A stretch of 63,985 bases of DNA, counting the filler, from Psammoneis japonica (lineage: Eukaryota): assembly GCA_008632985.1 (NCBI GenBank). It is 3 parts of 3 records of this genome, joined end to end, with 100 filler letters (N's around TTAATTAATTAA, not from the genome) between each part and the next. Parts side by side here need not be neighbours in the genome. Positions count along the whole stretch, not along the records: positions 1 to 27,620 come from QPGO01000410.1; 2 more parts are not named here. One strand, given 5' to 3'. This document shows positions 8,125 to 54,659 of the stretch, piece by piece. The notes below the pieces were generated by a model, which had not been told where the DNA came from, did not search any database, and saw only the letters and a program-made list of their open reading frames with translations. Positions within the stretch are counted from its first letter, which is position 1. Every line of letters begins with the position of its first letter. The translations under genes and the position numbers were made by a program.

Positions 8125-9890
8125 TGCAAAAACAGGCACACATTTCTTTTTTAAAAAAAGCACAGATTTGCAGTAAGCAGTGAGCACCCACGTAGAAACG
8201 CTCGTAGAAATCTGTGACGCTCCACAAAATTTTGAGGGACATCCACGACTAAATCGGCATTTTCGCCCCAAATCTCACAGCACCCATCACACCCACTAGC
8301 AGCATCTGAGATTCATTCATACGATGACGACGCCTGTACGTGCAGCACCCGACCTCCTCTTGTCCCATGAGGAGAAAGATCAATGTATTTGTAGCTGGGG
8401 TCTAAAGTGCCGTGAGATGCAAGAGAGTTTTCGTGCTCGAGCCGAAGCGGGCGAAGACGAACCTCGTGCTGGGCGATGTGTGCGTCTGCGACTTGGAGGC
8501 AAGTCGGAGAAAGCAGAGAAATGGAGAGAAGCAGTGTTGGTGAACCTTGGAATATCTTGTGATGCAATTGACAACTTGGGTCAGGTTCCTGTTGCAAGGC
8601 ATCACTGGACCGTCAATCAGCTGCGTTCTTTTGACGGCGGCAAGAAACCATCTGCACCCCTGCCCTCGGCGAAGATGACAACTCTCACGGAAGTGGTCGA
8701 CCATCAGCACTTTATGAAGAAGGGATCTGATAAGTCACATTTTCACTGTCCCAACGTGCCAATGAATTCATTGTTGATGGAGACGAGGAAGTCGCCACAC
8801 AGCGTGCGCAGCCAAACATTTGACGAGCACAAGGCGTTTGCGAAGCTGAAGGGACACCAAGATAGATTCAACCAACTCACTCTTGGTAATTATATAAATG
8901 ATGGAGAAGCATTGCATGACAAAGAGAATGAGCCTCCAAAGGACATGGAATTGGAAGTGATTAAAGAGAGAGCCGAGGATGCGCAACAGCAGTCATCACG
9001 CCTCAAACAATGCAACCGGATGAGCGCGTGTGGGAAGCGTAAATCGGACGTATCAACTGCCGGTGTAGCTGAGCCTTTGTATGATGGCTGTGATGTTGAA
9101 GAATTTGCTGCAGATTTTCTTGATTCAAATTCTGCTTCTCGTTGTCAACTTGCATCGCCCAAATGGCACGCAAACAATCCAACAGCTTGCAAGGACATGT
9201 TCGGGTTTCATGCTTTGGAGGAGATGAAACAGCACATCTCCTGCTTTTTTGTTGATGTGCCACTTCTTGTGTCTGAAATCTATTTTGATGGAGATGACAG
9301 AAAGCTTGAGTGCAGTCCTGCCGATCCAACGGAATTTGAACAGCTGCTGATTGTGAAGCACTTCATGCAGCATTGCCCGGTGCATAAGATCACTGGCACT
9401 GCTTTTGGCATGTCACGATTTGCAGTGAAGAGACACATTGAAAAATGGGCACCACGGTGGGCCAAGCATGGAGAATTTCTTTCGATTCTCCCGATGCCAC
9501 GTGATTGCTTTGACAAGGAAATGCCGGACGAGTTTGCTGAAATGCTTCTTGACTCGGTGGCTTTTCTTTTTGATGGAAAAGACACTCCCACAGAAACAAA
9601 GCGCAAAGACTTTGTGGCATGTTTTATGAAGCCACACCGATGTGTCAATCCCAATTCTTTTTCCACTGGCCTCAGCAAATGGTGCAGACTGTGCCTTGTT
9701 GACATGGGTTGCTGATTCCCATCGTCGAGGTGTCGAGGGTGTCGTGGAATGATGTGCAAAAGTGCAGCGTCGAGCATCGAAAACAAGTTTCAGCAGTGGA
9801 TGTCCCTCAAAATTTTTTCGTGCATCACATCTGCGCCAGCACTGGTGCTCACTGCTTGTGGTTCGGCTGAAACTGGCGTTTGTTTTTGCC
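8125..9890 (+). mobile_element. Degenerate, internally deleted PIF/Harbinger- or ISL2EU-like DNA transposon
   Basis: ORF 8324-9715 has a THAP-like N-terminus (CICSWGLKC...ARHHW), an HTH-like region and FLFDGKDTPTE resembling the first Asp motif of DDE_Tnp_4, then truncates. Imperfect inverted repeats flank it (aagcagtgagcacc and aaattttgagggacatccac at ~8175-8247 vs reverse complements at ~9796-9857). Confidence 0.5.
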
Positions 9891-9899
9891 GGAATTTTT

Positions 9900-12410
9900 T
9901 TGGCGCGGTCGGTCCAGGCAGGTCCGGCCGGCGCGGTCCAGATTTTCCGTTCAGAACAGATGCCAAAACTGAATGTGATTCAAAAATCGAGACAGATGCA
10001 AGGGCACATGCACTTGCCATGTGCCCAGACAGAGCACTGTCGCTTTGCTCGTCAGTCCTCTTGTGGTGATCTGGCCATTCTGGCAGCAAATGGTGGCATC
10101 TGTTGGACTGGGCAGGTTTTGCTGGCTGCCGAATCGAAAAATTTGCGACATCGCAAAATTTGCAACAAATTCCAAATCCCCGCACAGTCATCACGCGGCG
10201 AGTCAAGAAATGACCCTTGTCACCCTCCAAGATCGTCTTTGCGATGCGGCCAACATCCTCTGGTGCAATTCAAGGTGCAGGCATTCTTTCTGCTTCGATT
10301 AAGAAAAGACATGATGCACGAGAAATGACAAGAAATCCTCATTTTCAAAGGAAATTGCCTTCTCGTGACAGCAACTCATGCCGACGCATCGCAAGATTTC
10401 AACAAAAATGACCTTTTTGGATGATTGCACCTCCTTTCCTCACAAACAAAACGTCACACAGCTCTTCACAATGATGACAATCTGATTGGTTTGTCATTTC
10501 ATGTCACTTGCAGACCTGCGGTTGTCGAAACAGTGGCACCCGCTCATTTGAAGCAAAAAATGAAGCACTCAGAGACCTCGCACGTGCTTTCATCGTGAAA
10601 AAATTCGAGCTGTTTGTTTTTGTAAATTAATTTGCGATTTGCAAATTTTGCGTTTCAGTGGCTGGCACAAGTGCTGACCCCAACCCCGTTCCCAACAAGC
10701 TGGAGCTGCCTGCACAGCCTGCACAGCCGCCAGAGGGTGGGAGAGAGGTCGTGGGAGCGGCTGAGTGTGTCCACTGGACTTGCTGCTGAGCTCTTCAGAA
10801 GAATGAGTGAAGGCAGCCAATGAACAAAAAAAACAAATGGTTGCCTGTGATGTGGTGCGCTCACCAGCACTCACCCTCTGCACACTTGATTTTCACAACC
10901 CGCCACTGCACTTGGGCTGCTGGAGCTGCTTTTTTAGCAAAAATTCCTGCTGCCAAACAACACGAGTGCTCCAGTTTGATGGCAGTTGGCTTGCCCTGAT
11001 CAGTGCACACCCACACAACAACACATGACAAGCATTGGGGGGGCTTGGATGTGGTGCAGTTCTTGAGTCACCCTGATCCTTGAAACCAGAACAAAGTGGG
11101 CTGACGTTGCATTTCAATGGACAGGCACTGAGTGCATTCATGACAGGCAGTCTTGGAGCTGGCACAAGCCATGTTTATCTTTTCACACTTTGCACCCGGC
11201 TTGGTGGCATTGGCGCAGTCAATGGTGGAGCTGGCAGGTTGCTGAACCTGGCTTTTTGTCAGCCTCTGGGCGGCAGCCACACAGAGGCTCAATCTGCACC
11301 AAAAATTTCATCAAACTCATCACCACCCTTGTCATTGGTGGACTCAACAATCCACCCTGGAAGGAAATTGCAGCCTGCATCTAAAACTTGTCATTGTCAA
11401 TGTCATCTTGACAAGTCAGTTGATCTTGACAAGTTGGCTGATGGTGGTGCTCCATGCCAAGTTCGTGGGTCATCACACAACTGACCTTGGAACAATGGGG
11501 GGGCATCTTGGAAGTGAGAAAGACACAAACACAAAGAGGACAACATGGAGCTTGCACTCCCTCCTCTCATGTGCAACATGCATCCTGCTGAGCTGTTGTT
11601 GCGCCAGTGTGCCAGCGAAATGAACGCTGCCACCCCCCGCCACCCCAGTTGCCACCTGCACTGTGCTGCACACTAACCTGCCACTGCTGCTGGTGCAGCC
11701 TCTGCCACTGCTGCCACATCTGCCGCCTGCCCCACAACTGCTGCTGCTGTGGTCCACACCACAACATTGGCAACCACTGTCACCACAGCCAGTGCCCAGT
11801 GCCGACGCCAGCTCTTCCACCACTGCTGCTGTGGCCCACACCACCTCTCAGCTGGCAGCTGCTGCCACTGCAGGTTTTTGCCACCACTGCTGTGGCTTGT
11901 GCCACCAAACTCCATCATTGCTGCCACAGCCACTGCTGATGCTGCCACTGCAGGCTGCATCGCCACCACTGTGGCCTCCACAAACTCAGCTGCCATGGCC
12001 ATGACTGCCAATGCCACCATGGCCTCCTGGTGGGTGCAACATGTCACCCCACTGGTGCTGTGGCCAGTGCCAATGCTGCTGTCATCATGACCTCCAGAAC
12101 AAAAAATGCTGGTGCCACTGACACCACCGCCACTGCCACCGACAGCACTGCCTGCACAATTTTGAAATTGAAAGTGCTCCTGTCACCACCACCATCACAA
12201 CAAATGCTGCCGCCAACTCCTCCAGCATCAAATTCTCTGCTTTTGCCATGAAAGCTGGTGCTGTCAGCACCTCTGCCACCATCGCACCCCCTCTGCACAA
12301 GCATCTCTGCCCACGCCATCAATCCCACCACCACAGCCACTGCTGGTGTCACTGTGCTCAAGCCGGACAAAGACCTTGACACAACCTTGGAGAGATCCAT
12401 TTTGAACATG
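9900..12410. repeat. Heavily decayed repeat/TE relic, TG/CA-rich, with low-complexity (CCA/CTG)n tract at ~11600-12350
   Basis: TpA is almost absent and CpG is strongly reduced. Many overlapping Cys/His-rich ORFs, none with a recognisable domain. Confidence 0.5.
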
Positions 12411-12821
12411 GTAATTATGACAGCGAAGGCAGCTCATGGACGAGCTTATCCGATTGGTCTTTACACAAGGTTCATCAAAAACAAGCAGCAAATCGAAATC
12501 ATTTCTCATCTCTCTCTCTCTCACTCTAGCGACAGAAAATGCAAAATAGAACGAAAATGCCAAATGCCAGCAAATAGTGTTTTGCAGCGATATGAAAACT
12601 AATCAGGAAATGAATAACTAGCTCCTTCACAGGCAGTTTGCGTCAACAATTTGCTCTTCATCTGGCAGGGCGCGCTTCCGGTCCCTGGCAGACTTGCAAG
12701 CCCACCGCGAAATCTGTCGTTTGTGCGGGGGCAACTCGATACCTAACAATTCGGATGAGTGAACTCCACTTTTCCTAGAGGACAACATTGATTCACCCAG
12801 CTGAAGCACCTTTGATTCATC

Positions 12822-14429
12822 TTAAACACTTTTCTCTCGTGAATGATCGGTAGCCTCGGTGCTATCAGAGACTGAAGAGTCCGTATGACTCTCTCCACCC
12901 AAAGAGCTATCATCACTACTACACGTCTCCCCGTCACAGTCACCATGATCAACACTTCTCTGATGCTGTTTCACCATGTGTTCGACTTCGATCAAGTTGA
13001 GCCCCAGTGTCTCCTTGCGCACGCACAATCCATCTTGAGCAACCAGCGCTGTGTCAAGGTCGTTTGCAGCTCTCGCAAGTCTCTCATCGGTGACGTCTCG
13101 TTGAGTCCATGCCAGATACGGGTCAATATAGAGACGATTCCCAAGATAGTGACATTCACTTTTGTCCAGAATAGCTCGGATATGTAGCAGGCTCCGTACT
13201 ACACAGCGGCGTCCGTTGGTAACAATACGAACCACCTGATACCAGCAGTGAATGGCGAGTTCGAAGTTTCGCAAGTATGGATAGATGAGTGCTCGCCTCA
13301 CGGAATCAGATACAATGGTTTGAACCTTGTCAATTCTGGTAGAGCCATAATCTTCCAACCAACTAAGACTCGAGCTCAATGTGCAAATTGTCCATGAAGA
13401 TTCGATAGTCGGATCTCCATCTGTTGTCAAGTGGTCGTACACGTAGGCAAACAAGATATCGAACAAACCCATAAACAGGTACTTCTCCTGTTCGGCAGTG
13501 ATGTCCCCCGGTAAGAGTGGATATGGAATAGATGCCAACTGAAGGGTTTCATCAGGAGTGAAGTATGTTGAGGTCGTTTTGGTTTCGGACCTGCTCCGGT
13601 CGTTCGTCGTGAGTTCCGACATGCTCAAGGCTAGCGACTCTAGATTGGTGCCCTGATGGTCCTTGTGTCTTTGCTCTTCCTGTCGCTTCTGGTGTTCAAC
13701 ATTCCAGTGTGGCTGCATAGCCATGGCACACTGATATATGTAATCATCTGCCAGATCAAGATCGCCCAGGTACCGGTCGGCGTCAAATTTTTCCTGTTCG
13801 GTTTGTAGTCGCAGAGTTCTACGGTCAGCTGCGTCGGTCTCATCTGGGCACTTCAATTCGAGCATTTCAGCCGCCAGACCTTCTCGAGCCAAGTCAACAA
13901 ACACACCAACATGCTGGTTGAGGAAACCGTAATGAGGTTTAAGAACATCTGTGAGGCTCGGCAAACTTTCTGTCGTTGACGTTGCTTCGTTTCGTTGCAA
14001 TTCCGACATTGCTTCATTTTTGTTCTCACCGTCGTCTGCCGCTAAAGACGACGATGACAAGACCGAGATGATTTTTGTAGTTCGTCCACCATTTGCTGCC
14101 ACTCCTCGTTTTGGCTGCCTAGGTGTCATGAGATTTGCCATCATATCAAGGTCCGGCCAGTGAGCCGCTTCTGCCTTCTTTAGTCGCAGAGAGATTGTCC
14201 CTCCGTTGCGGGAAGGATCGTACGTGGCACATTCGGCCTCGTCTTGTTGAACCAACGCAGCCGGAAAGGACAAAACCAAGAGATAGGGCGGACTGGAGAA
14301 ATGCAGCACCGAATCATCCACCACAACTACTTCCACAGACTTTACGGAGACACGAACGTGTGGTACGCTAATGTCCACAACAACCTCTGATAGGGACTGA
14401 GAGAGAGCAAAACGGGGAGTCACGGGCAT
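12822..14429 (-). CDS. SHQ1: H/ACA snoRNP assembly factor SHQ1
   Basis: 535-aa ORF with N-terminal CS domain (TPRFALSQ...ISVPHVRV...FSSPPYLLVLSFP), the YGF motif, EKFDADRYLGD, and the SHQ1 domain (DILFAYVYD...ESSWTICTLS...RRALIYPYLRNF). Normal TpA content. Confidence 0.92.
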   Translation of the reverse strand: MPVTPRFALSQSLSEVVVDISVPHVRVSVKSVEVVVVDDSVLHFSSPPYLLVLSFPAALVQQDEAECATYDPSRNGGTISLRLKKAEAAHWPDLDMMANLMTPRQPKRGVAANGGRTTKIISVLSSSSLAADDGENKNEAMSELQRNEATSTTESLPSLTDVLKPHYGFLNQHVGVFVDLAREGLAAEMLELKCPDETDAADRRTLRLQTEQEKFDADRYLGDLDLADDYIYQCAMAMQPHWNVEHQKRQEEQRHKDHQGTNLESLALSMSELTTNDRSRSETKTTSTYFTPDETLQLASIPYPLLPGDITAEQEKYLFMGLFDILFAYVYDHLTTDGDPTIESSWTICTLSSSLSWLEDYGSTRIDKVQTIVSDSVRRALIYPYLRNFELAIHCWYQVVRIVTNGRRCVVRSLLHIRAILDKSECHYLGNRLYIDPYLAWTQRDVTDERLARAANDLDTALVAQDGLCVRKETLGLNLIEVEHMVKQHQRSVDHGDCDGETCSSDDSSLGGESHTDSSVSDSTEATDHSREKSV

Positions 14430-15280
14430 TCTTCCTCTATGATCCTACTTTCGATCGAGAGGATTGAGGGATCAAGAGAGCGAATGAGAAATCCCAGTCC
14501 TTTTGAGAAGGAAAATCGGGGCTTGTTGTTGCTTGTTGCTCGCTTACTGTACTTGGTTGGGGAAACTTATTGTTGCCACAAAATTGAAAATTGAAAATGG
14601 GTGGAGAGACCGCGCACGATACGCGACAGGGAAGGAATTTTGGTGTGGGTGTGCGCGCGAGGTGCGCCATCGTGCGTCGGCGGTGCTGCGCACTGTGCGA
14701 TCGGAGCTCCACCATCACCCCACTTTCATCATCCATCATTGATCATGATGTTGAGACTTCGATTCTGTGATTCTGTCTGATCGATGTCCGCACTGATGAG
14801 TTGCGAGATTTCGGCCATTTGTTTTGACACTGCCAATTGATGAATGATGAGCTCAAACTTTGTGGCGGCAGTGCTTTCTTTTGAAGGAGATTGTGTGGAT
14901 GAGTTCTTGCACTCAAAGCAAAACATGGGGCTGTGCAAAGTGCACGGCTTTTGCCAGCTTTCAAGCATTTGGTTATCACTGAAAAGAGCCATGTGCAAGG
15001 GCACCATTTTCAAAATGTTGTGTGGCCATCTTGAAAAAGAGTCGCTCTTTGCTTCTGACAATGAGCGTGGCACCCCAGTGGACCCAAGGACCTTGTGGCA
15101 AAAAAGATTTGGGGCATGTTTTGCAGCCTGCATGTTTCACAAAGAACACTGCCAAACTGAGCTTGTGCCAATGAGAGTTGGGCTCAAGCAGTCAACTTTG
15201 AAACAGCGGAACTCTGGCAGCAGATCATGAGCGCCACCTTGAAACCCCAACCCAGTGCAAGCATGTCCCTGGGGGGGGGG

Positions 15281-15661
15281 TGCAGTGTGCATTGTTGTGT
15301 GCGTTGCACACATGCACAGCTGCATATAAAATGAATTTATGTTCCAATCGTACGTCAATCGTGGGTTCGTACGAGGACAGATCAATCACACAGAGTTGAT
15401 CGGATGTCGAGAATCGCGAATGCGACTGTGCGATGATGTTGACATCTCATGTGTCAATGTCAATCGTATCCGGACAATCTGTTGTCACGATTGCATTCTC
15501 CGAAAGGCCTTTTGTCTGTGGGAGCAGTGCAAAAGGTTTGGGCTGTTGAGAACCCGTTCAGAAAAACCCAAAATGATCATGCAGAAATGATTCTCACAAT
15601 TTTCACTTTTTGAACTTTGCTCTACTTTCATTGTTTGCACTCGTTCTTCAAGCATGGTGCA
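15281..15661 (+). repeat. Ty3/Gypsy 5' LTR (copy 1)
   Basis: TG...CA termini; homologous to 21707-22087 and 24917-25293. Confidence 0.85.
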
Positions 15662-15697
15662 TTGTGTGTGCACACCACAGAAGGCAACTAGTTCAAG

Positions 15698-16786
15698 ATG
15701 AAGCTTTCACCTCAGGTGGCCAAGGCCAAGACTTCGTTGAGGCAGGAAAGAATTGTTCCTCAACCGTTGGAATCGAATTCCGAGCCGAAGAGCCTCAAAC
15801 CGAGCCAGCATCTCAAGATGGAGCAGTGTTTTCATCCCGAGAAGAAGGACAGTCGGACCCACACGATCAACGTCGAGTGCTGCAAGAAACAGGGTGTTCC
15901 CAAGTGCATCGAATTTTTAAAGAGCTGTGATCAACTTCCAGTGGGCCAGAACATCAGCAAGCAAGCCGACAAGTTCCGTCTCATGCGCACGTTGCCACAA
16001 GGAGACGCTCTACGTGCTTTCGAGAATGCAGCGGCAAACATTGAAGACGAATCTATGGAAGGAAGCTTCAAGAAATGCCTGCAGCACCTCACGAAACACG
16101 TGTTTCCTAAGAATGCACTTTCGGTTCAGAAACGTCATCTGCGTCGCGATCTCAAGAAGCCCGAGTCAATGAAAGTGTGCGAGATTGCTGCTTGGGTCCA
16201 GGAAGTCAACGAAGACCTCAAGTTCTATCCTCCCTTTGGAAAGGATCAGAAGATCAAGGAGGACAAGCTCAAGAACATCCTCTTCAATCTTGCACCTCGA
16301 AAGTGGCAGCGCCAGTCAACCGTCCAGGGTTTCGAAATTTTGAAACATGCCTGCGACGAGTTGGTTGAGTTTTTGGAGCACCTGGAGGTCGCTGAGGATG
16401 TGTTCGACGGCATTCATGCCAAGGCTGATCCCAGCGGCAGTGCTGGATCGAAAGCCAAGAGTGGTTCCCAACGTGGTTCCAAAAATGGTCACCAACATGG
16501 TGCCAAGAAATCTCAGTCCGACAAGTGGTGCATTCCATGCGAAAAATCCACTCACAACACGGACAAGTGCTGGTCGATTAAAAGACTTGCAAAAGAACGC
16601 CATGGGAACTATGAACCCGACCCAAAATGGCGCCGTTCAAATGGCAATCGCACATGGTCTCGTCGTGACAACAACAACGCCACTCGCAAAGAAGAGTTGA
16701 ATGCCATGGCAGTCCAAGCAGTTCAAAAAATTGCTCAAAGCGAGTTCTTCGAACAACGACAACAAGCGCAAGAGCAAAGATTGTGA
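15698..16786 (+). pseudogene. Gypsy gag (copy 1), TpA-mutated
   Basis: Downstream of the LTR; zinc knuckle CIPCEKSTHNTDKC (CX2CX4HX4C); Tyr nearly absent with apparent Cys/His replacement. Confidence 0.8.
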
Positions 16787-17025
16787 CTCTGATGCCCTTG
16801 ATGAGGAGAATTGTCAGTTTGAAAAAATGATGTGCAGCAATTCTGAGGAATGACTTGCACCGCAAGAGGAGTCTTGCGCACTGCTGGACATCAGGAAGCC
16901 CGGAAAAAGGGCCAAGATGACTCACGCTAGTCCAGTTGTCGCAGCTTGTGTGAGCACCTCTGTTTTCAGGGTTGTCCAATGTGCTGACAGCCTTTGGCGT
17001 AACAGCAATCTGTTGAGAGTTGCCT

Positions 17026-17078
17026 GACATACAAAGCTCGATGATGTGAGCTTTCGCTTTCGCTTCATCAGTGTTGTC
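17026..17078 (-). ncRNA. Minimal type I hammerhead ribozyme (3' pLTR)
   Basis: Minus strand reads GACAACA-CUGAUGA-A-GC-GAAA-GC-GAAA-GCUC-acaucauc-GAGC-UU-UGUAUGUC. The catalytic core and stems I, II and III can all be drawn. Confidence 0.8.
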
Positions 17079-17484
17079 GGCTGTTTTTCGAGCTAAAAAA
17101 TTCGAAATCGGCATTTTTCTACGGCTGTCGTCGCAGCTGACGTTACAGGCGTTGAAAAAGCCGCATCAGAAAGATCCACCCGTGCGCGGTGCGCATGGTG
17201 AGTTAATCGTGTGGATCACAGATCTCGAATGCGCGCGAAGCGCGCATGAGAATGAGTGAGGCATCATCAACTCAAAAAACTCCAACGGTGTTGGAGAAAG
17301 AGCGAGTTGATGTTGCTGCTGTCAGATGTAGAAGCATGCTCTACTGCAGCAAGTGCGCAAGTGAACAAACTCAAAATGTAAAACAAAAAAACTCAAAACG
17401 GGCATAAGCCGTAGCGCCGTGGCACGGTGGGCAGCCCGTTTGAGTTTTTTACCGGAGGTGACTCGTCGCGACGGAGTCGCCTAA

Positions 17485-19410
17485 TCAGAGCTCCGGTGTG
17501 TCAGAGAGTTTTTTAATGACATCTGAAGCATGCTGCCCATTGGGTTCCTTTGGTGGTGTTCGTGTGAGGGCGTCTCTTAGATTTTTGGGTCTTGAGCACG
17601 CCACTGCTAACCGGTTGAACCCGCTGTGCCCTTCGCAGGTTTTTTCACACGCTCTTCTTATTTCAGTGCGAGCTGTCCCGCGTGGGTGACACTCTTGGTG
17701 AAAGAAAAGAGTGTTGGATGGGTCAGCGACATTGGAGCGTGGGGCCTTTTTCCGGTGGACAGTGGCGGCTGCATCCACAAAGAGGTTCTTGAGGCACTCT
17801 CTGTTGTGGCCTCGCGCTGTCAGCCGGTTGAAGAGCTGGGCCACTGTTTTTTGGCAATCCTTGTTGTTTGGATTTTGTGCCCGATGCGTCCGAAGGTTTC
17901 CATGCACAACACTTCTCAGTGCTCCAGGTGGATGTGCTGAGCTTGGGGGCATGCAGAGGTGCAGGTTCATGGCCTTCTGGTACGTTCTTGTTTCAACACA
18001 CCGGTTTGCTCCAATCTTGACATCGAGATCCAGAAATGCAACTTGGTCACTGAGCTCGGAGGTTTCCCATTCCAAGGTGCCGAAGTCATTCAGTTCATGT
18101 TTGAACTTCTCCCATGTTTCACCTTCACCGCCTGTCCACACGCCGAGCATGTCATCTGTGAATCGTCCACAACAGGGCAGGTTCAAGTTGAATCGGGTTA
18201 GCACACTTTGGCGTTCGTGGAGAGCCTTGTACATGGTGGCGTACATGCAGGCTGTGCTGGTTCCCATGGCTGTACCATCGATTTGGAGCCAGCAGGTGTC
18301 GTCAAACTGGATGACATTTCTTGTCATGACGATTTCCAGTGTGGTGAGGAAGAAGTCAACTGGGAAGTTTTTTGGCATCTCATCGGGGTGCTCAAGGAAC
18401 CACCGGTGGAATGTTTCCAGAGCATGGTTGGTGTTGACATTGGCATGCATTCCTGCTGCATCGACTGTGAATGGCTTAGCATCTGGTGGCAGCTTTCCAA
18501 GTGATCGTAAGTCGGCGAGGACTTGGTGAGAGTCTCGGATGTACGTTCGCGATGGGGGTGGAAGTTCTTTCATTTTGAAATCTGACCATTTTGAAAACAC
18601 TTCATTTTCACTGTTGATGCAGCTCACTGTTGGTCGTGTCGTCCACGGTTTTTTGTGGACTTTCGGAGTGATGCAGAACTGTGGCATGCGGTGTTTCTTT
18701 TTGAAACTTCTTTCGAAGTAAGTTTTTTCCGCTTCAGAGAGGCTNNNNNNNNNNNNNNNNNNNNNNNNNNNNNNNNNNNNNNNNNNNNNNNNNNNNNNNN
18801 NNNNNNNNNNNNNNNNNNNNNNNNNNNNNNNNNNNNNNNNNNNNNNNNNNNNNNNNNNNNNNNNNNNNNNNNNNNNNNCTTCGCGCTCCATGATGGCTGG
18901 ACCAAGATTCTTGTCCGTAAGGCACACGACGAATCGTCTGTCATTTTGCAATGTTCGCAGCGTTCGACACTGCTGAGGCGTCAAATTAAAGCGGGGTCGT
19001 TGGCGGTTGGCTGTTCGACTGGCTCTGTCTGTCTTGTTTGCGAAGTCCATCATTCGAAGTTCTATTGTCCCGTCTTCAATCGGTGGAGGGTCGAAATCAG
19101 AGGGGACGTGTGGGTGTGGGTTGCACCCGTCTTCGTCGTTTACGAGTTCGGAGTTCTCGATAAAGTTCCGTAGACGTATGGTTCGTCGGAAGCGTTGTAC
19201 GCCTCGGCGGTTGTGTGGGAACGGGGTGCTTGATTCTATACAAAACTTGTGTCCAAGTCCTAACAGTAATCCAGTACCCGGGGGTGGTTGCAGCTTTGTA
19301 CAGAGGTCATGGTAAGACATGTTGTCCAGGCGGTTGAAGCATGCCGTAGCTTTCATCTTGCCGATAGCCGTTGCTACGTTTTCCCACAGGGGGGCATCAG
19401 GATTTGGCAT
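17485..19410 (-). pseudogene. Penelope-type reverse transcriptase (TpA-mutated; N gap 18745-18878)
   Basis: TDKNLG, PKVHKKPW...RP, QIDGTAMG, RFTDD, FLDL, TYQKAMNLHL..PSSAHP (PLE thumb). The frame stays open upstream of the ATG and overlaps the end of ORF1 in the -1 frame. Confidence 0.88.
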
Positions 19411-19499
19411 GAATCCATGGATTCTGACGCAGTAGCGGTCCGATTGTTTCTCGGCAATTTTGATGGGGAGCTCGGTGCGTTGGTAGAGGAGTTTCGCCT

Positions 19500-20981
19500 C
19501 TAGTTTCGCCTGTTGCTTCTCTTGCCTCTTTGCTCGCCTCTGTGCTGTCCTCCGTGATTCCCTTTTCTTTTTCCGTGGCGGTTCTTGGCTTCGTTCTTTT
19601 GTCTCTTGGCGGATGGTTTCCCATTCGTCTTCGAGGCTTGGGGTTGGCGTTTCCGCTTTCCTTTTCCTTTTTGCGTTTCGTTGTCTTTTGCTACGTCGTT
19701 CTTTCGTGCCGGTGGGGCTTCCCGACCGCCCTTGTCGTTTTTTTGCCGACGGTTTGCCTTCTTGTGGAGCTTTTTGAGGCTTGCGACTTTTTTGTCAATC
19801 TTTTTGTTGATCAACTCGTCGAGGGCGGGGGATTGAACTGTCGGTTCGTTTTCAAGAGCTGTTGCGACGAGGTCAGCTGCTTGTTCCTTCTTGCGGCGTT
19901 TCCACTTTGCCTCTAGCTTGGCGTTGACCGATTTCAATCGTTCTTCTTTGTCCAGGGCGTGTTGCAATTGCATGGTGACTTGTTCATAGAACTGTTTCAT
20001 TTCCTTGAACACTTCTTCTTTCACAACTTTCTCACCTGTTGAAAGTTCGTGGTTCACGCACTCACTTTCGAGCAGGGGGTTCAAGTTTGCTGCCAGTGCG
20101 GCCTGAGTGCGCGTGGCATCCTCTTGTGTGTGCACGTCTTCGGTGCTCTCTTGAGTTGAGGGAGGGGTGCTGTCTTGGGTGCTCTCTTGAGTTGAGGGAG
20201 GGGTGCTGTCTTCGGGACTGAAGGGTCCTTCATGTCGAAGCTGGCGTTCAACTTCCTTGATGATTTCTTTGGGAGAAGTCTCAAGGCAGTCTCTCAGGAA
20301 GCTCGATGGCAGCACGTCACACAAGTGGGGCATGAGTGGCACTCCACTGAGTTGACGCGTTGTTAGGTCTGTAGAGCCTTTGAACTCTTTTACATGGTCA
20401 ATGTAGAATTGGAAGAGAACAAGGCTAGCTTCGACCAATTCTCGTATTCGGTTTGTTTTCACAACCTCAAGTTCACGTGAGGCCATCTTGTGTGCGAGTT
20501 TGGCTGCATCCTTTTCGAAGCATGCAACCAGGTCTTTCATCTCCTGGACGAGCTCTTGGGCAGCAGCATCATCGTTGAGCCGGTCCGCATGTGTGAGGTT
20601 CACATTGAGCCTGCAACATTTGGGGATGTGTGGATTGTCATCAGTGCCGGGGAAAGCCGATAGACTTGGCTTTCTGCTCTTTACAAGCCCGCACTGAGTG
20701 ATCACACGAGTGGCTAGTGACTCGACAATGTCCTTGAATCCTGTTAGCTGCGTCTCAATCGCTTCGCGACAAGGGGCTGGTTTGTCCAACTTACGTTGGT
20801 TAGCTGCCAAGATCTGTGGCGCCGAAGGCGCCGTTGACGGCGCCGCAGGCGCCGTCATTGTCACTGCTGCTGCGGTGGCGAATCGCACGGTGCGTGCGGC
20901 TGCGTTGTTTCGTCTGTTGCGAGCAGGTGGGGTTGTCGGAGTGGACGCGCTGGCTGCAGTCATTGTTGGAAGTCTGTGCAC
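19500..20981 (-). CDS. PLE ORF1, coiled-coil with highly basic C-terminus
   Basis: 493-aa ORF directly upstream of the RT and downstream of the pLTR; K/R-rich tail; internal 36-bp duplication (DSTPPSTQEST x2). Confidence 0.65.
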   Translation of the reverse strand: MHRLPTMTAASASTPTTPPARNRRNNAAARTVRFATAAAVTMTAPAAPSTAPSAPQILAANQRKLDKPAPCREAIETQLTGFKDIVESLATRVITQCGLVKSRKPSLSAFPGTDDNPHIPKCCRLNVNLTHADRLNDDAAAQELVQEMKDLVACFEKDAAKLAHKMASRELEVVKTNRIRELVEASLVLFQFYIDHVKEFKGSTDLTTRQLSGVPLMPHLCDVLPSSFLRDCLETSPKEIIKEVERQLRHEGPFSPEDSTPPSTQESTQDSTPPSTQESTEDVHTQEDATRTQAALAANLNPLLESECVNHELSTGEKVVKEEVFKEMKQFYEQVTMQLQHALDKEERLKSVNAKLEAKWKRRKKEQAADLVATALENEPTVQSPALDELINKKIDKKVASLKKLHKKANRRQKNDKGGREAPPARKNDVAKDNETQKGKGKRKRQPQASKTNGKPSAKRQKNEAKNRHGKRKGNHGGQHRGEQRGKRSNRRN

Positions 20982-21048
20982 ACTGTTTTCGGGGTTGTCT
21001 GATGTGCTGACAGCCTTTGGCGCAACAGCAATCTATTGAGAGTTGCCT

Positions 21049-21101
21049 GACATACAAAGCTCAATGATGTGAGCTTTCGCTTTCGCTTCATCAGTGTTGT
21101 C
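21049..21101 (-). ncRNA. Minimal type I hammerhead ribozyme (5' pLTR)
   Basis: Same as 17026-17078 with one change in loop III; lies just upstream of ORF1. Confidence 0.8.
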
Positions 21102-22123
21102 GGCTGTTTTTCGAGCTAAAAAATTCGAAATCGGCATTTTTCTACGGCTGTCGTCGCAGCTGACGTTACAGGCATTGAAAAAGCCGCATCAGAAAGATCC
21201 ACCCGTGCGCGGTGCGCATGGTGAGTTAATCGTGTGGATCACAGATCTCGAATGCGCGCGAAGCGCGCATGAGAATGAGTGAGGCATCATCAACTCAAAA
21301 AACTCCAACGGTGTTGGAGAAAGAGCGAGTTGATGTTGCTGCTGTCAGACATAGAAGCATGCTCTACTGCAGCAAGTGCGCAAGTGAACAAACTCAAAAT
21401 GTGAAACAAAAAAACTCAAAACGGGCATAAGCCGTAAATGTTGTGTGGCCATCTTGAAAAAGAGTCGCTCTTTGCTTCTGACAATGAGCGTGGCACCCCA
21501 GTGGACCCAAGGACCTTGTGGCAAAAAAGATTTGGGGCATGTTTTGCAGCCTGCACATTTCACAAAGAACACTGCCAAACTGAGCTTGTGCCAATGAGAG
21601 TTGGGCTCAAGCAGTCAACTTTGAAACAGCGGAACTCTGGCAGCAGATCATGAGCGCCACTTGAACCCCAACCCAGTGCAAGCATGTCCTGGGGGGGGGG
21701 GGGGGGTGCAGTGTGCGTTGTTGTGTGCGTTGCACACATGCACAGCTGCATGTAAAATGAATTTGTGCTCCAATCGTACGTCAATCGTGGGTTCGTACGA
21801 GGACAGATCAATCACACAGAGTTGATCGGATGTCGAGAATCGCGAATGCGACTGTGCGATGATGTTGACATCTCATGTGTCAATGTCAATCGCATCCGGA
21901 CAATCTGTTGTCACGATTGCATTCTCCGAAAGGCCTTTTGTCTGTGGGAGCAGTGCAAAAGGTTTGGGCTGTTGAGAACCCGTTCAGAAAAACCCAAAAT
22001 GATCATGCAGAAATGATTCTCACAATTTTCACTTTTTGAACTTTGCTCTACTTTCATTGTTTGCACTCGTTCTTCAAGCATGGTGCATTGTGTGTGCACA
22101 CCACAGAAGGCAACTAGTTCAAG

Positions 22124-23212
22124 ATGAAGCTTTCACCTCAGGTGGCCAAGGCCAAGACTTCGTTGAGGCAGGAAAGAATTGTTCCTCAACCGTTGGAATC
22201 GAATTCCGAGCCAAAGAGCCTCAAACCGAGCCAGCATCTCAAGATGGAGCAGTGTTTTCATCCCGAGAAGAAGGACAGTCGGACCCACACGATCAACGTC
22301 GAGTGCTGCAAGAAACAGGGTGTTCCCAAGTGCATCGAATTTTTAAAGAGCTGTGATCAACTTCCAGTGGGCCAGAACATCAGCAAGCAAGCCGACAAGT
22401 TCCGTCTCATGCGCACGTTGCCACAAGGAGACGCTCTACGTGCTTTCGAGAATGCAGCGGCAAACATTGAAGACGAATCTATGGAAGGAAGCTTCAAGAA
22501 ATGCCTGCAGCACCTCACGAAACACGTGTTTCCTAAGAACGCACTTTCGGTTCAGAAACGTCATCTGCGTCACGATCTCAAGAAGCCCGAGTCAATGAAA
22601 GTGCGCGAGATTGCTGCTTGGGTCCAGGAAGTCAACGAAGACCTCAAGTTCTATCCTCCCTTTGGAAAGGATCAGAAGATCAAGGAGGACAAGCTCAAGA
22701 ACATCCTCTTCAATCTTGCACCTCGAAAGTGGCAGCACCAGTCGACCGTCCAGGGTTTCGAAATTCTGAAACATGCCTGCGACGAGTTGGCTGAGTTTTT
22801 GGAGCACCTGGAGGTCGCTGAGGATGTGTTCGACGGCATTCATGCCAAGGCTGATCCCAGCGGCAGTGCTGGATCGAAAGCCAAGAGTGGTTCCCAACGT
22901 GGTTCCAAAAATGGTCACCAACATGGTGCCGAGAAATCTCAGTCCGACAAGTGGTGCATTCCATGCGAAAAATCCACTCACAACACAGACAAGTGCTGGT
23001 CGATTAAAAGACTTGCAAAAGAACGCTGTGGGAACTGTGAACCCGACCCAAAATGGCGCCGTTCAAATGGCAATCGCACATGGTCTCATCGTGACAATGA
23101 CAACGCCACTCGCAAAGAAGAGTTGAATGCCATGGCAGTCCAAGCAGTTCAAAAAATTGCTCAAAGCGAGTTCTTCGAACAACGACAACAAGCGCAAGAG
23201 CAAAGATTGTGA
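22124..23212 (+). pseudogene. Gypsy gag (copy 2)
   Basis: CCHC knuckle; duplicate of 15698-16786. Confidence 0.8.
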
Positions 23213-23342
23213 CTCTGATGCCCTTGACGAGGAGAATTGTCAGTTTGAAAAAATGATGCGCAGCAATTCTGAGGAATGACTTGCACCGCAAGAGGAGTCT
23301 TGCGCACTGCTGGACATCAGGAAGCCCGGAAAAAGGGCCAAG

Positions 23343-24890
23343 ATGACTCATGCCAGTCCAGTTGTCGTCGCTTGTGTGAGCACCTCTCTGGGCAAAGCAA
23401 AAAACAAGCCTCTGCATGTTCTCCTCGACAGCGGAACATCGTCAACCACAATTTTGCGCAAATTCACGCGGAAACTCAGAACCAAACCATCCGCCACCAA
23501 ACTCTGGGAAACCAAAGGAGGGCTCTTTATGACTGACAGTCAATGTAAAATCCAACTCTCCTCACCCGAATTTGATGAACATGAGATGATCGAAACAACG
23601 GCACATGTTGACAATTCCTCTTCCTCTTCGAGTCGTTATGACATGATCATGGGACGTGACTCAATGTCGAGTCTTGGGACAACATTGGACTTCTCGAATG
23701 AAGAAATCAAATGGGGGGATGCGACTGCTCCCATGAAGAATGTTGGTGCACTCTTCGATGCCGATGTTTTTAAGTTGATTGCCGATCACATTGAGGAATC
23801 TCATGCAGTGATTGGCCTTGATGACAGGGTCAATCGGATCCTTGACTCAGACTGTCACGCCGCAAACCTCAATGATGTGACAGCAGCAGCCACTCATCTA
23901 ACTCCTGAAGAGCAGAAGCAGCTAAACTTCCTCTTAAAAAGATTTGAAAACCTTTTCGATGGTTCTCCAGGCAAATGGACCGGGAAACCAGTGGATTTAA
24001 AGTTGAAATTGGGCGCGAGTCCGCATCATGCTAAACCATTTCCCGTGCCACAAGCCTTAGAGGCGACTGCTCGCAAGGAGGTTGAAAGACTGTGCAAGTT
24101 AAAAATCTCAAGAAAAAAACTGTGTGTGGATCTCATTGGGCCACACAAAATGCGTCGTAAGGGAAAGAAAGAACCCCTGGTCCTGAAATGTTTGACAATG
24201 ATTGATCCAGCAACCGGATGGTTTGAAGTTGTGGAAATCCCAAATGAGGAATCCATGGCTGTGGCTGGACTGCTAGAACGAACGTGGTTGAGTGGATGTC
24301 CTTGGCCATCGTCAATTGCACATGACCGTGGCAGTGAGTTCATCGGACACCAATTCAAAGACATGGTGCAAGAGGATTGTGGCATTAAAGTCAAGCCCAC
24401 AACTGCACGAAATCCACAAGCAAACGCAATTGTTGAACGCGTACATCAAGTACTCGGAAATATGATCCGCACACTTGATTTGCAACATACACCTCTAGAT
24501 GCTGAGGATCCCTTCGCTGGAATATTATCAGCAGTAGCTTTTGCTGTACGTTCTACGTATCATACTACTACGCAAGCTACACCTGGACAATTGGTCTTTA
24601 ACAGAGACATGATATTTAACGTCCAACATATCGCAGACTGGAAATTAATCCAGCAGCGAAAACAAGAAATCATAAATAAAAATAACGCTCGGGAGAATGC
24701 TCGACGCACTCATTATACGTACAGAGTAGGAGAGAAGATACTACTCGAAAAAGACTCGCAGAAATTAGAACAGCCCTACGTTGGACCGTATGTAATAATA
24801 ACGGTACACACTAATGGCACAGTACAGATCAAACGCGGTGACGTCATTGACACTGTCAACATTCGTCGAATAATGCCGTTTAACGACTGA
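23343..24890 (+). pseudogene. Gypsy pol remnant: aspartic protease + start of RT joined to integrase core
   Basis: LLDSG...DMIMGRD (protease); KPFPVP..EVERL (RT start) jumps to LCVDLIGP...DRGSEF...NPQANAIVER (D,D,E) and YVGPY (GPY/F). Confidence 0.9.
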
Positions 24891-25737
24891 CTCTAATGTG
24901 CAATTAGGGAGGCGAATGCAATATGCGTTGTTATGTACGTTATATATATGTATATGTATATATAAAATAAATTTATATTCCAATCGTACGTCAATCGTGG
25001 GTTCGTACGAGGACAGATCAATCACACAGAGTTGATCGGATGTCGAGAATCGCGAATGCGACTGTACGATGATGTTGACATCTTATGTGTCAATGTCAAT
25101 CGTATCCGGACAATCTGTTGTCACGATCGTATTCTCCGAAAGGCCTTTTGTCTGTAGGAGCAGTGCAAAAGGTTCAGGCTGTTGAGAGCCCGTTCGGAAA
25201 AACCAAAATGATCACGCAGAAATGATTCTCACAATTTTCACTTTTTGAACTTCGTTCTACTTTCGTTTACACTCATTCTTCGAGCACAGTGCAGGGATGC
25301 CAAGGCAACAATTTGGACAATGCATGAATCTGTGCGGTTGGCAGGTGGGTTGCCCTCTGTCACTCTCTGACTGCTCTCCTCTTGTGTCTGCTGGCACGCT
25401 CTTGGATGAGCTCTCTGGTTGGTTGTGGTCCAGGCCATGAGCACCACCAGACCTCAAACCAGGTCCTTGGAACCCAGAGTCAGAAACTCTGGCCAGCTGC
25501 CAGAGCAGAGAGTTGCAAAGGGTGGGAGTTGCAGGCCACAAGTGAAACATTGCTCTCAACTCACAGCGCAACACAGCACTGACAAAAGAAATGAAGAGTG
25601 AGCTTGCTGTGGCTCCAGCAGTGCTTGTAGACTCACGCACTGCATCTGCATGGCAAAAGCAAAGAAAAGCAGATCATGGAAAACAACCCTCCACTTGTGC
25701 AGGGGAAGGCACAGACCATTGTCTCGCGTTGGTCTCT

Positions 25738-44700: not shown

Positions 44701-47671
44701 TGGAGCAATCCAATCACATGGGTCAAGATCAATGGAGGCGACCCCATTTGATGACAGACTCTCAGTGTCTTGGATTCCAGAGAGCCCATGCTGCCATCCA
44801 TTGCGAAATGAAATCTCCGATTCAGCGCATGACACTAACTGAGCCGGTCTCAATGATGCGCGATGCTCTCATCGTAGCCCCTTGTGGCTCGGGGAAGACT
44901 GGCACAATTGCCGCATCAAGCACGCATGCAAGGTTCAGCCATCTTTCAAGGCTGGGCAGAGAGGGCATGCAGCAATGCTTCGAACAGCACCAAGTGGACT
45001 CTGATGTTTTGGATGACCCCGCCGTGCAAGATTTTCTGGAACACTGTGCGACTGACGAATTCCCACCTCCTCCCCACGGTTTTGCCCTTTTGTGTTGTCC
45101 CTCATCGTGCCGCGATGGATGACACAATCTCCAATTTAAACAAAATGCAGTTTGTCACAGCCACTGGTTGGCGTGCTGCGGATGAAATGGAGGCCTTGCT
45201 GCAGCGTTCCGCATTCGCTGGTGATTTAAACTCGGAAAGCGTGGCAGGTTTCGACGTCCTGGTTCCAACAGTGGCGAAGGCTTGCTCCGACGAAGCGCGT
45301 CGATTTGTCGAAGATTGTTGCCGCGCAAAAGTGCTTTGCGCTGTTGTCACGGATGAACCACACATGTTTGTGATGGAGTTGGAGCACATGACATGCCTTG
45401 TCACATTCGTCAACCTCATGTCCAGATTCTCGCACGTGCGCCACCCGGGTGCCAAGGTTTCATCTTAGCGGCAGCAGCCCTGCCTGCTTGTCCACGAGCA
45501 TCGCGACAGTGACAGGATCCTCCTTTGGGAGCGCACCACCAACATGGTTGAACAGTTGTACGATCGGCCACTCTCGCTGCACGGGGCACGACGATCCCGA
45601 AGAGATTCTCGCGGAATGTGCTCAGAAGAGAGGCATTTGGCGACCCAGTGACACCGTCCCATCAAATGTCGCACATGCTGTCTGCAAGGTTCCATCCACC
45701 AATGACCACCGGCATGCTGAGTGCGCCCTGGCACGGTTGAAGCCTTTGCTTGCACAAAAGAACGACTCTGGGTGCCAACCAGACAAGATCCTCATTGTCT
45801 GCAAAACAAAAAACTTGGCACGTCGCGTTCACCTGGTTTTCGGTTCATCCTCTGTCATGCTGCTCGGCAGGGACAGAGACACCCCCGATGACCAGATGCA
45901 GGTCTTTCAAGAGAAATGGATCAATGGCAGCGTGCAGGTTGGTGTCGGCACATCAGTTCTTGCCCAGTCCATCAACCAGGGGAGGTGCAACCTCGTTGTT
46001 TGCCTGGACATGTTGCACAACGCTGTGCTCTGCATGCAGGCATCCGCTCGTGGCGGGCACCGCGGCCAGCCCTCGCTTAGCTTGTTTCTCTGCCGAGAGC
46101 AACAACACAGGCGATGCCTGTCGCCGAAGCCTTTTGACTTCAACGAGCTGCGCATGAGCGGCGTTGACATCGACGACCCCTCATTGAGCCATTCTCTTGG
46201 CACTGAGTCGCTGAGTGGCTTCATCAAAGCCGACGTTTCCCAACACATTTGCAGACGTGTCCACCTCAAGAGAGAGATGGACAAGGCTTTTGACAAATCG
46301 GACGCACATGTGACCAGATTTGAATCTTGTGCAGATCGCGACTGGTGCTGCAATCTTTGTTCTGCCAAGGTGGTTGATGTCATGTCTGTGATGGGTTTTC
46401 ATGGTTACGAAGACCAAGATGCAGACACAATGGATGTTGAATCCGATCCCTTCTTGCCCTGCACAGCCACCCCCATCGCCCTCGATGATGTTGCGTCACT
46501 TGACGGCGATGACGCAAGCACGACGGAGGTGGCACCAAGTCCCTTCTCTCCATCCACCGCCTCTTCCGATGACAGATCATCACCCCCTGATGAATGTCCG
46601 CCAGCCGTCACTCCTCATGATCACTTTTTGACTGCCAACGGGGCTGACTTTGAGGCCGAATTGTGCAATCTTGTTGACTCCGCATCGACAAACAACTCTC
46701 TCCTTGCACCTGACACTGCCAACACAGATGGCTTGCCAGGAGGGGAGGAAACGGCAGCCATGGCTGTTGCTTTGTCCGAATCAAACGGCTCAAACTCTCC
46801 TGGCAATTGTTTTTCCAAGTTGCCTGGCACCAATTTCCCCAGGGGCCGATCCCGTTCTCGGGTTGTTTCAAAAATCAAGCGGCGACAAAAGCCCGATCTT
46901 TTTACCCAGATGCCACAAGAAACCCAGCCCAGGACTCGTTCCTGCAGCCGCTCGAGGGATCGCACAGATCGTGCGATGAGACAAGTTCCGTTGTTTTCCA
47001 CCCGTGGCAACGCGCCTTCCAACAGAGCTGCGGCAGATCCCGCTGTTGCACGAGACACTTTTCCCAAACACAGCTGCCCCGTGCGCGCATTTGTCACCGG
47101 ATCTGACAGACGGCTGCTCCACAGCTGTCCCTGGCACTTTCAAATGGGCCTTCCTCCAGTTCCACGCCATCGAGGGCTGCTTGCAGAGAATCCCTTTGGC
47201 AGCCCCGAGTGCCGGGTTTCCTTCTGCAAGGCACTCAGAGGATGCACAGCCAAATCATTCTGTTTTAAGTGCGGCAACGATGGCATTTCCTGCTCATCGA
47301 AAGCCTTCGATATCAACACCTGCCGCTTTGGTGGTCTCCAAAGCGGCCAAGGTTGTTGTTGTTTTTGCGGCATTTGTCATGACGTGGGGGATGCACATGT
47401 GCGAGAAGCTTGTCTTGGAAATCGCCTTTGGGGGCTTGTTGTGTGGGCTTTCAGGAGTCCCTCCGGGCACAAGCTGGTTGCTGACAGGTGGATCCGCTCT
47501 GGAGCGAAAGGACTCCTTGGGTTTCCGTTTCCTGATCTGTGTTTGTTTTGTGACGTTTCGCCAGAAAAATGGAAGAAGGCTCTGAAGTTTCTCGTTGACA
47601 ATCGTCACGTTAACTGCTGTTTTTGGAGGTGCGTCCTCCATGTCCTCCACGAGCACTCCTTTCGCATTTGA
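41720..47671 (+). pseudogene. Telomere-linked-helicase-like (RecQ family) gene, ~2000 codons, frameshifted
   Basis: N-terminal LVCLGC...VKRH zinc-finger-like segment; motif I LIVAPCGSGKT, II VVTDEPH, III LSGS, IV ILIVCKTK, V VGTSVLAQSIN, VI QASARGGHRGQ; RecQ Zn module CRRVHL...CCNLC. Confidence 0.75.
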
Positions 47672-53612: not shown

Positions 53613-53688
53613 GGGTCAGGGTTGGGGTCAGGGTTGGGGTTGGGGTTGGGGTTGGGGTTGGGGTCAGGGCCAGGGTTGGGGTTGGGGT
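53611..53688 (+). repeat. Degenerate internal telomeric tract
   Basis: Hexamers TTGGGG, TCAGGG, CCAGGG; no intact TTAGGG. Confidence 0.85.
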
Positions 53689-54016
53689 CGGTGTGCCGCA
53701 TCGTGGCATTCGAACTCGGATGCGAAACTCTGGCTCGCATGTTGCTGTTGAAAGGATGGAGTCACTCGAGGCAGGATGGTGGGAAACCTTGCAAGTTGGA
53801 GTGCAGAAGAGCACCCGCGATCGAACAAATGACATCGGTGGATTTTTCTGAATCAGAGACAGCAACAAACATGATGGCGAAGGTGCCCCTCTTGTTTGTT
53901 GTGTTGAACGATCCCAATCTGTTGGATCCCAGCTCCAGCGAGCCCTTGGTGAACCACGTTCAACCCCAAAGCTTTGCCAATGAGTTGATGAAATTTCTTC
54001 AACTCCCACACCTTGG

Positions 54017-54096
54017 TCAGGGTTGGGGTTGGGGTTGGGGCCAGGGTCAGGGTCAGGGTTGGGGCTGGGGTTGGGGTTCAGGGTTGGGGGTTGGGG
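54017..54096 (+). repeat. Second degenerate internal telomeric tract
   Basis: Hexamers TCAGGG, TTGGGG, CCAGGG, CTGGGG. Confidence 0.85.
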
Positions 54097-54658
54097 TGAC
54101 AGAAAATGAAGGCAAATGGCAAGAATTCAAACAACAACTCCTTGCTGCTGTCTAAACAGCAGATGAGTCTCCGCTCAGAGACCGCTGCAGGAGCCGAAAG
54201 ACGTGCAAGTCGGTGTGATCGGGCTGCTGTTGTTGTTCTTGTGAGCCTTGTGGCTCGAAAGCAAACCACATCGCACGTGAACGCGCGGAACTGGAGCACA
54301 CAAAACTGTGCGCGGCAAACTAAACAGCGCGCGACACTTCGCGCGCATCCAAATCCTGTTCAAATCCTGTCACTCCCCAGTTTGCTTGAGGAGCCACAGA
54401 AACAGATTCGACTTCGGATGGAATGAAGTTCCAGAACATGAGGGGGCGGAGAAGGTCCCAGATTTGGGAGTAACCCCAATGCTTGCTGAGAATGTCAGCA
54501 GGGTTGCGGGAGCCTTCGATGAAGTGGAGCTCAAGGCAACCAGAGGCAATTGCCTCACGCACACGGTGGAACGACAGTGCGGTGTGTCGCTTGTGTAACT
54601 TGGAGTGCGGGATGGTGGCACTGTCTACAACCGACTTGTTGTCACCGAACATGTAACT
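54097..54658 (-). mobile_element. 3' end of Ty1/Copia element: RNase H C-terminus, PPT and 276-bp 3' LTR (54097-54372), truncated by the telomere
   Basis: FGDNKSV...KRH...FHRVRE...NPADILSK (Copia RNase H); PPT ggggag; LTR with inverted termini TGACAG...CTGTCA. Confidence 0.88.
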
Positions 54659-54659
54659 N

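Follow-up and report, generated by a model that had tools for sequence, protein, structure and literature searches.

Three LTR copies in the genome of the diatom Psammoneis japonica (GCA_008632985.1) differ from one another mostly at TA steps, which raises the question of whether TA was lost or gained, when the change occurred and what process produced it. The copies lie in a 63,985-nucleotide stretch of DNA (the window) made of separate contigs joined end to end, with the LTRs on contig C412 and positions 27721-55223 corresponding to contig C413. Judged by its sequence features, the element is a Ty3/gypsy retrotransposon with a full length of ~5.18 kb (Table 1). Its family has TG...CA LTRs, a polypurine tract and a 4-bp target duplication, which is perfect in 30 of 38 LTR pairs and imperfect in the window copy (GGGG versus GGGA, three of four positions), and the sequence just downstream of the 5′ LTR is conserved among element copies. 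The pol order RT, RNase H, integrase was found in outgroup P0004, with which all three full-length copies tested were collinear. The window copy retains residues 3-221 and 751-1010 of P0004 pol, the ~1.6-kb deletion having removed RT, RNase H and the integrase zinc finger. Diatom-type Ty3/gypsy elements share the TG...CA LTRs, polypurine tract, 4-bp target duplication and RT-RNaseH-integrase order, and the element is otherwise ordinary, whereas the window copy differs by its deletion and its interruption. Among 150 gag relatives found by a HMMER search, four contained <1% Tyr; a text-based search for gag gave no match.

The TA observed/expected ratio was 0.14 in the element versus 0.50-0.57 in the host genes Dus and SHQ1. 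The best named relative of the SHQ1 protein is that of the diatom Fragilaria crotonensis (49% identical), followed by that of Seminavis robusta (43%). On the other side of SHQ1, positions 9000-12500 form a second block that is both TA- and CG-erased (observed/expected 0.09 and 0.46, respectively).

Table 1. Positions of the retrotransposon, its LTRs and the surrounding features in the window (obs/exp, observed/expected).
Feature	Position	Strand	Remarks
5′ LTR, first copy	15281..15661	+	7 TA remaining
5′ LTR, second copy	21707..22087	+	4 TA remaining; GGGG immediately upstream
3′ LTR	24917..25293	+	25 TA; last 130 bp partly hit; 4 bp shorter; GGGA immediately downstream
Polypurine tract upstream of 3′ LTR	24906..24916	+	Identical in other element copies
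gag-like ORF	22118..23212	+	TA-erased; 1 Tyr in 364 aa; duplicate at 15692-16786
pol remnant	23280..24890	+	Protease region fused to integrase core by ~1.6-kb deletion near 24117-24119
Spared block	24440..25160	.	TA obs/exp 1.04 versus 0.14 elsewhere in element; integrase tail and first two-thirds of 3′ LTR
1.95-kb direct duplication, first copy	15013..16961	+	Unique flank, 5′ LTR and gag; flanks putative Penelope-like insertion
1.95-kb direct duplication, second copy	21436..23387	+	
Putative Penelope-like RT element	16962..21436	-	452-bp direct terminal repeats 16962-17413 and 20985-21436; assembly gap 18745-18878
Non-repeated 5′ flank	14600..15280	.	TA-erased as well (obs/exp 0.05), reaching the SHQ1 gene edge
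Host SHQ1 gene	12822..14444	-	Not TA-erased (obs/exp 0.57)

An earlier note on this DNA had quoted the three LTR sequences, which we found to match, and had described their differences as mostly TA versus TG or CA. This description holds: the 3′ LTR has 25 TA steps, 21 of which correspond to TG or CA in the 21707 copy, and the TA steps left in that copy all have a counterpart in the 3′ LTR, with no TA gained. Between these two LTRs, A>G or T>C differences were concentrated at TA steps, with 21 of 50 bases affected there and 6 of 177 among the remaining A/T bases (Fisher P = 3.7e-11), and 15 of the 19 differences in the first 63 LTR columns fall on TA steps. The 5′ LTR copies additionally lost five to six CpG steps. 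The 3′ LTR is itself partly hit, with two TG-versus-CA doublets and 25 TA versus 31-32 in the least-hit copies; it is the less hit LTR, not the ancestral state. The window 5′ and 3′ LTRs probably belong to one insertion, since the spared block and the hit part of the window copy have the same nearest relatives (L073, L043, L075 and L042) and the LTRs show only six differences outside TA and CG, as low as any LTR compared and equalled by two LTRs of other elements.

The 5′ LTR and gag are doubled around an insert that we take to be Penelope-like. Its RT-like features score 0.97 to RVT_1/HTH_animal clusters, which is a lead only, and a Pfam search with three mutated and gapped insert frames gave no match, the GIY-YIG endonuclease included. 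Direct repeats of 452 bp were found in five copies of the insert, and direct duplications of 0.6 to ~2 kb flank it in the window and in three of the four other copies (contigs C2, C386, C280 and C214); the available passages on duplications flanking Penelope-like elements give 8-10 bp (PMC3846280). Because these other inserts are likewise flanked by long duplications, the doubling of the 5′ LTR and gag is most likely real; a haplotype mis-join was considered for the 1.95-kb duplication and rejected on the same ground and because the repeat spacing fits the other copies. Long duplications of this kind provide dated pairs for the mutation process. The two 5′ LTR copies differ by five substitutions, namely three TA losses (all in the 21707 copy), one CpG loss and one other T>C. 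From such differences it had been claimed that mutation continued past the duplication, and this holds, though the effect is modest: five TA losses were found over ~1.93 kb, and CpG losses outnumber them. Since the duplication, 5 of 16 remaining TA and three AA changed, all in the second copy, alongside 13 single CpG losses and three doublets, two of the latter CG-derived.

The direction of change was assessed across genomic copies. We retrieved 55 stretches around other copies, which together with the window gave 38 LTR pairs and 35 aligned elements; two loci with nested insertions (L037+38 and L039+40) and L068, whose flanks are those of L067, were left out of the alignment, as were 16 retrieved loci without a complete LTR pair. 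At sites where TA occurs in at least two copies, 267 of 325 also hold both TG and CA, and the derived states comprised 3,387 TG and 3,486 CA cells, with only 56 CG cells. The co-occurrence of TA, TG and CA at sites almost without CG rejects a TG, CA or CG ancestor, and the presence of both TG and CA at one and the same site requires a TA ancestor; across these copies, the alignment shows TA to be the ancestral state. The concordance of the TG/CA choice between copies was 0.65, versus 0.64 predicted from site bias alone in the same data. The earlier note had held that a family consensus of TG or CA would make the 3′ LTR the derived state, which proved to be the wrong test: TG or CA is the majority at many sites, yet both derived states co-occur. 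The proposed direction itself, TA>TG/CA, was upheld by four independent tests, the three-state sites of the 35 copies being joined by Tyr>His/Cys replacements, one-sided losses within LTR pairs and telomere-like hexamers. Positions of conserved Tyr, compared with 120 outgroup pol proteins, carried His or Cys at six of nine positions in the TA-poor part and at none of six in the TA-rich part, and Leu>Ser/Pro and Ile>Met/Thr changes in pol are also consistent with TA>TG/CA. Among internal telomere-like hexamers, all 21 counted units had TTG (15) or TCA (6) and never TTA, versus TTA in 90 of 90 counted units of the terminal TTAGGG-type array; judged by these units, the internal repeats are erased by the same TA process. 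Telomere-like arrays lie at 53613-54097 and 54660-55223, separated by N at 54659.

The claim that the change followed insertion was likewise sustained, by one-sided TA losses within LTR pairs that have intact target duplications. The 38 pairs (30 with a perfect 4-bp target duplication) showed 406 TA-type differences (196 TG and 210 CA), together with 195 TG/CA doublets, 138 CG-type, 52 AA and 21 GA differences and 75 transversions. TA loss was confined to one side in L036 (20:0), L069 (25:0), L060 (0:25) and the window (21:0), and many other pairs were hit on both sides; in L036, all 20 differences are at TA in one LTR and no CpG was lost. A general bias between 5′ and 3′ LTRs, apparent in the first copies, disappeared with more pairs (18 versus 19 of 38). 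In the duplication flanking another Penelope-like copy (contig C2), the two sides lost 35 and 2 TA, respectively. The one-sided LTR pairs, this duplication and the erased non-repeated 5′ flank show that chromosomal DNA was altered after insertion, each copy separately, and the one-sided losses indicate that pairing of two copies is insufficient to explain which is hit. Both strands were equally hit in every region and copy, without strand runs: the TG share per copy was 0.42-0.56, and adjacent events were of the same type at a frequency of 0.52 versus 0.50 expected.

At the kilobase scale, blocks are either close to saturated or spared, and the spared blocks are recurrent. Among the 35 copies, 9 were spared from ~4.2-4.4 kb through the 3′ LTR, 10 were spared up to ~4.0-4.2 kb (their upstream limit lying in most cases at 2.5-3.2 kb), 3 were spared across both blocks, 3 only patchily and 10 nowhere, the share with a spared 3′ end being inflated because copies were chosen by similarity to window queries, which favoured this class, with no query lying over the upstream one. 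In the 21 copies with spared blocks, private transversions were 0.90 per kb in hit and 0.70 in spared parts (P = 0.47) and non-CpG G>A was alike in the two (P = 0.30), whereas CpG decay was ~9-fold higher in hit than in spared parts (13.6 versus 1.5 per 1,000 CpG bases, P = 8e-10) and A>G outside TA ~4-fold higher (2.4 and 0.6 per kb, P = 1e-7). Since transversions and non-CpG G>A are similar in the two parts, the spared blocks are, by these measures, as old as the remainder of the element and were spared rather than refreshed. CpG density showed no correlation with the spared fraction along the element in the 35 copies (rho 0.00). TA-site density was rejected as a predictor of sparing, as its correlation (rho 0.80, or 0.66 after partial correction) is confounded by site finding.

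The process is highly specific. In hit blocks, TA changed at 83%, a figure partly built in because blocks were defined from neighbouring TA sites, versus 1.45% for AA>AG, 1.25% for CA>CG and 0.67% for GA>GG, and CpG decay reached 7.9%, versus 0.8% in spared blocks. TA and CG losses tended to be greater on the same LTR side (Spearman 0.65 in 37 pairs, L068 left out). Per-strand change rates of 0.52 for TAC, 0.50 for TAT, 0.31 for TAG and 0.26 for TAA show that the putatively edited A favours a 3′ pyrimidine (TAC/TAT > TAG > TAA). The best-surviving contexts were TTAA and CTAA and the worst was ATAT, both in the element and among the 117 residual TA of 27721-54600, a 27-kb subtelomeric stretch (TA observed/expected 0.08) in which both strands carry long open frames and positions 45392-47671 give a helicase C-terminal match. 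TA change is near saturation versus ~0.9 private transversions per kb, which may point to a rise in rate of ~1,000-fold order. CpG on one side of TA was without effect on TA survival. CGTACG sites (LTR positions 71, 90 and 150 in both LTRs) resist change even in hit LTRs at five of six sites, and are perhaps protein-bound; protection of TA with CpG on both sides (52 of 106 left) was rejected as a general rule, since only six LTR sites account for it and one of these is unprotected.

Taken together, these patterns make it reasonably probable that a host process converts A:T to G:C at TpA in silenced chromosomal DNA, with an adenine deaminase acting in methylated chromatin. The CpG decay in hit blocks suggests that these would correspond to CG-methylated (DNMT5-type) heterochromatin of the element; DNMT5 is described, in the available text, as methylating and repressing TEs in Phaeodactylum (PMC9998398). 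A TadA/ADAT-like adenine deaminase recruited to methylated DNA would convert A to inosine in duplex DNA, and inosine would be read as G and fixed at replication. The raised A>G outside TA agrees with off-target deaminase activity. The spared blocks may be stretches that are often unmethylated or protein-bound, namely the 5′ LTR, ~2.9-4.1 kb and ~4.3-5.05 kb of the 5.18-kb element, with a putative barrier near 4.1-4.4 kb. The outcome would be irreversible missense inactivation of the element, not the creation of stop codons. Several points count against this explanation: the same stretches are spared without relation to CpG density, only 2 of 79 metagenomic relatives carry the signature, and TadA-type enzymes need a single-stranded substrate, whereas the corresponding strand bias was not seen here. 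TadA-derived editors are reported, in the available text, to prefer YA/YAY (bioRxiv 10.1101/2025.05.14.653640).

The genome encodes a TadA-like protein (L179), an ADAT2-like protein (L183), two A_deamin loci and several C5 methyltransferases. ADAT2-like and TadA-like genes are expected in any eukaryote; the deaminase candidates look like ordinary tRNA-editing or nucleotide-catabolism genes, and no fusion to a chromatin domain was found among them in the frames scanned. The two A_deamin loci (ADAT1/ADAR-type, L199 and L200) are separate. There are 27 C5 DNA-methyltransferase matches in the genome, and those at L189, L190, L191, L195 and L198 lie within TA-erased DNA (observed/expected 0.03-0.11) and are probably carried by mobile or viral elements. 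More broadly, and with slightly less than even confidence, we propose that diatoms may carry a chromatin-guided defence in which a DNA adenine deaminase at CG-methylated DNA saturates TpA soon after insertion, and which would be shared with rhizarians and may be ancestral to, or spread across, SAR. If true, the enzyme would be an adenine base editor of duplex DNA that occurs in nature and has TAY as its motif.

Other sources of the same transitions were considered. An oxidised or alkylated T of TpA that mispairs with G would give T>C under the same targeting, and A>G on one strand is indistinguishable by sequence from T>C on the other, the motif being equally R-T-A. One locus (L182:319-1791, minus strand) encodes a guanine-deaminase-like domain joined to a 2OG-Fe(II) dioxygenase, and thymine dioxygenase is among the best solved relatives of this fusion; however, the fusion is equally compatible with free-base catabolism and our literature search found no precedent for thymine modification, which we regard as unlikely. 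A Tet_JBP search of the genome gave no match, and its control likewise matched nowhere. Error-prone repair synthesis of the polymerase eta/iota type, triggered by T:G mismatches after methyl-CpG deamination and mutating nearby A:T, would account for TA loss and CpG decay in the same places and for AA>AG weakly tracking the same side (Spearman 0.34, P = 0.04). The mutation signature of polymerase eta is WA, and TA was hit ~57 times more often than AA, which is far stricter; moreover, transversions were not raised in hit blocks and one LTR of L036 lost 20 TA but no CpG, making this explanation quite unlikely. RNA editing by an ADAR-like enzyme, or reverse-transcription errors during retrotransposition, could draw on the two A_deamin loci and on the 5′ U preference of ADAR cited in the available text of a preprint on Bigelowiella natans (bioRxiv 10.64898/2026.01.13.699255), but both strands are equally hit, the two LTRs of one insertion differ, and DNA that was never retrotransposed is hit, including the unique flank, one side of a duplication (35 versus 2 TA losses) and the telomere-like repeats, leaving an RNA stage extremely unlikely.

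The polarity and the mosaic structure can also be read differently. If RIP-like C>T had enriched the 3′ LTR in TA, TG or CA would be ancestral, as their being the commonest state at many columns might suggest; the 267 three-state sites without CG, the replacement of Tyr in the TA-poor but not the TA-rich part (six of nine versus none of six) and the TA observed/expected ratios of 0.61-1.12 in 77 of 79 metagenomic relatives leave this reading a negligible probability. The other two, the gypsy relatives L148 and L161 (integrase identity 57% and 60%), are depleted of both TA and CG (TA/CG observed/expected 0.06/0.05 and 0.19/0.04, respectively) and carry Tyr>His/Cys changes. Alternatively, gene conversion from cDNA or young copies could have overwritten the spared blocks later, the 3′ LTR among them, in keeping with block edges that recur at similar element coordinates and with nominally fewer transversions and non-CpG G>A changes in these blocks. 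These differences are non-significant, however, the spared block and hit part of the window copy have identical nearest relatives, and the 3′ LTR has its own deletions and substitutions, so that we consider gene conversion very unlikely. It is highly improbable that collapsed repeats produced the mosaic during assembly or polishing: although the contig carrying the element is short and gapped, and among contigs of one sample none bridged both spared-block edges, perfect target duplications were found in 30 of 38 elements, and unrelated repeats agree in spectrum, protein polarity and context ranking. One short-read contig matched the 3′ LTR end and flank without difference, but it possibly comes from the source sample and so is not independent.

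These findings make a putative natural A-to-G DNA mutator accessible to experiment, through its motif, its presumed link to methylation and the blocks it repeatedly spares, in organisms for which gene editing is available. Several practical consequences follow from the pattern itself. LTR-divergence dating fails here, with 20 changes in 379 bp of which none is neutral; majority-rule repeat libraries are incorrect at TA sites; and the loss of stop codons creates long false ORFs that inflate gene counts.

Among known systems, RIP in Neurospora and other ascomycetes changes C>T at CpA to give TpA, mutates both duplicate copies, is premeiotic and depends on RID/DNMT. A paper on Rhizoctonia, considered as a precedent, concerns RIP indices rather than TpA erasure in its available text (PMC7884421). 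RIP and the diatom process share dense, context-specific transitions in repeats after insertion, a link to cytosine methylation (presumed in the diatom) and leakage into flanks, but they run in opposite directions, the diatom process destroying TA, raising GC, removing rather than making stop codons (2.2 versus 3.4 stops per 100 codons) and often hitting a single copy of a duplication. The substrates of ADAR and APOBEC enzymes are RNA or cDNA, and the resulting changes are strand-biased and common to both LTRs. Such editing has in common with the diatom process deamination-type transitions, a preference for the 5′ neighbour and parasitic nucleic acid as target, whereas the latter acts on chromosomal DNA and on both strands.

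The closest parallel is the TpA hypermutation of integrated NCLDV and virophage DNA in B. natans, for which the available text of the preprint describes the same spectrum measured directly in mutation-accumulation lines, a ~1,000-fold raised rate active in some clonal lines only, enrichment of TE-related domains in TpA-poor sequences, a proposed adenine deaminase and an ADAT2-like candidate enzyme (bioRxiv 10.64898/2026.01.13.699255). The word 'diatom' is absent from that preprint, and our literature search, with most subscription papers outside its coverage, returned no report of TpA erasure in diatoms. Transitions confined to TpA, with both TpG and CpA outcomes and a regional distribution that spares host genes, were all seen here; judged by the same text, both systems show TpA>TpG/CpA on both strands, regionally, in parasitic DNA and against the usual AT bias. 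They differ in that B. natans is a rhizarian in which two viral inserts are affected, the rate comes from lines and TEs are merely hinted at by composition, whereas the diatom is a stramenopile in which retrotransposons, unique flanking DNA and telomere-like repeats are affected, near saturation; the available B. natans text mentions neither a TAC/TAT preference nor a coupling to CpG decay nor spared blocks that recur. Our findings extend the process from viral inserts of a rhizarian to diatom transposons, with LTR-level proof of direction and timing, and confirm that the TA-erasing process is real and its polarity correct, representing a transposon-directed, putatively methylation-coupled and block-structured diatom form of a kind known from one preprint.
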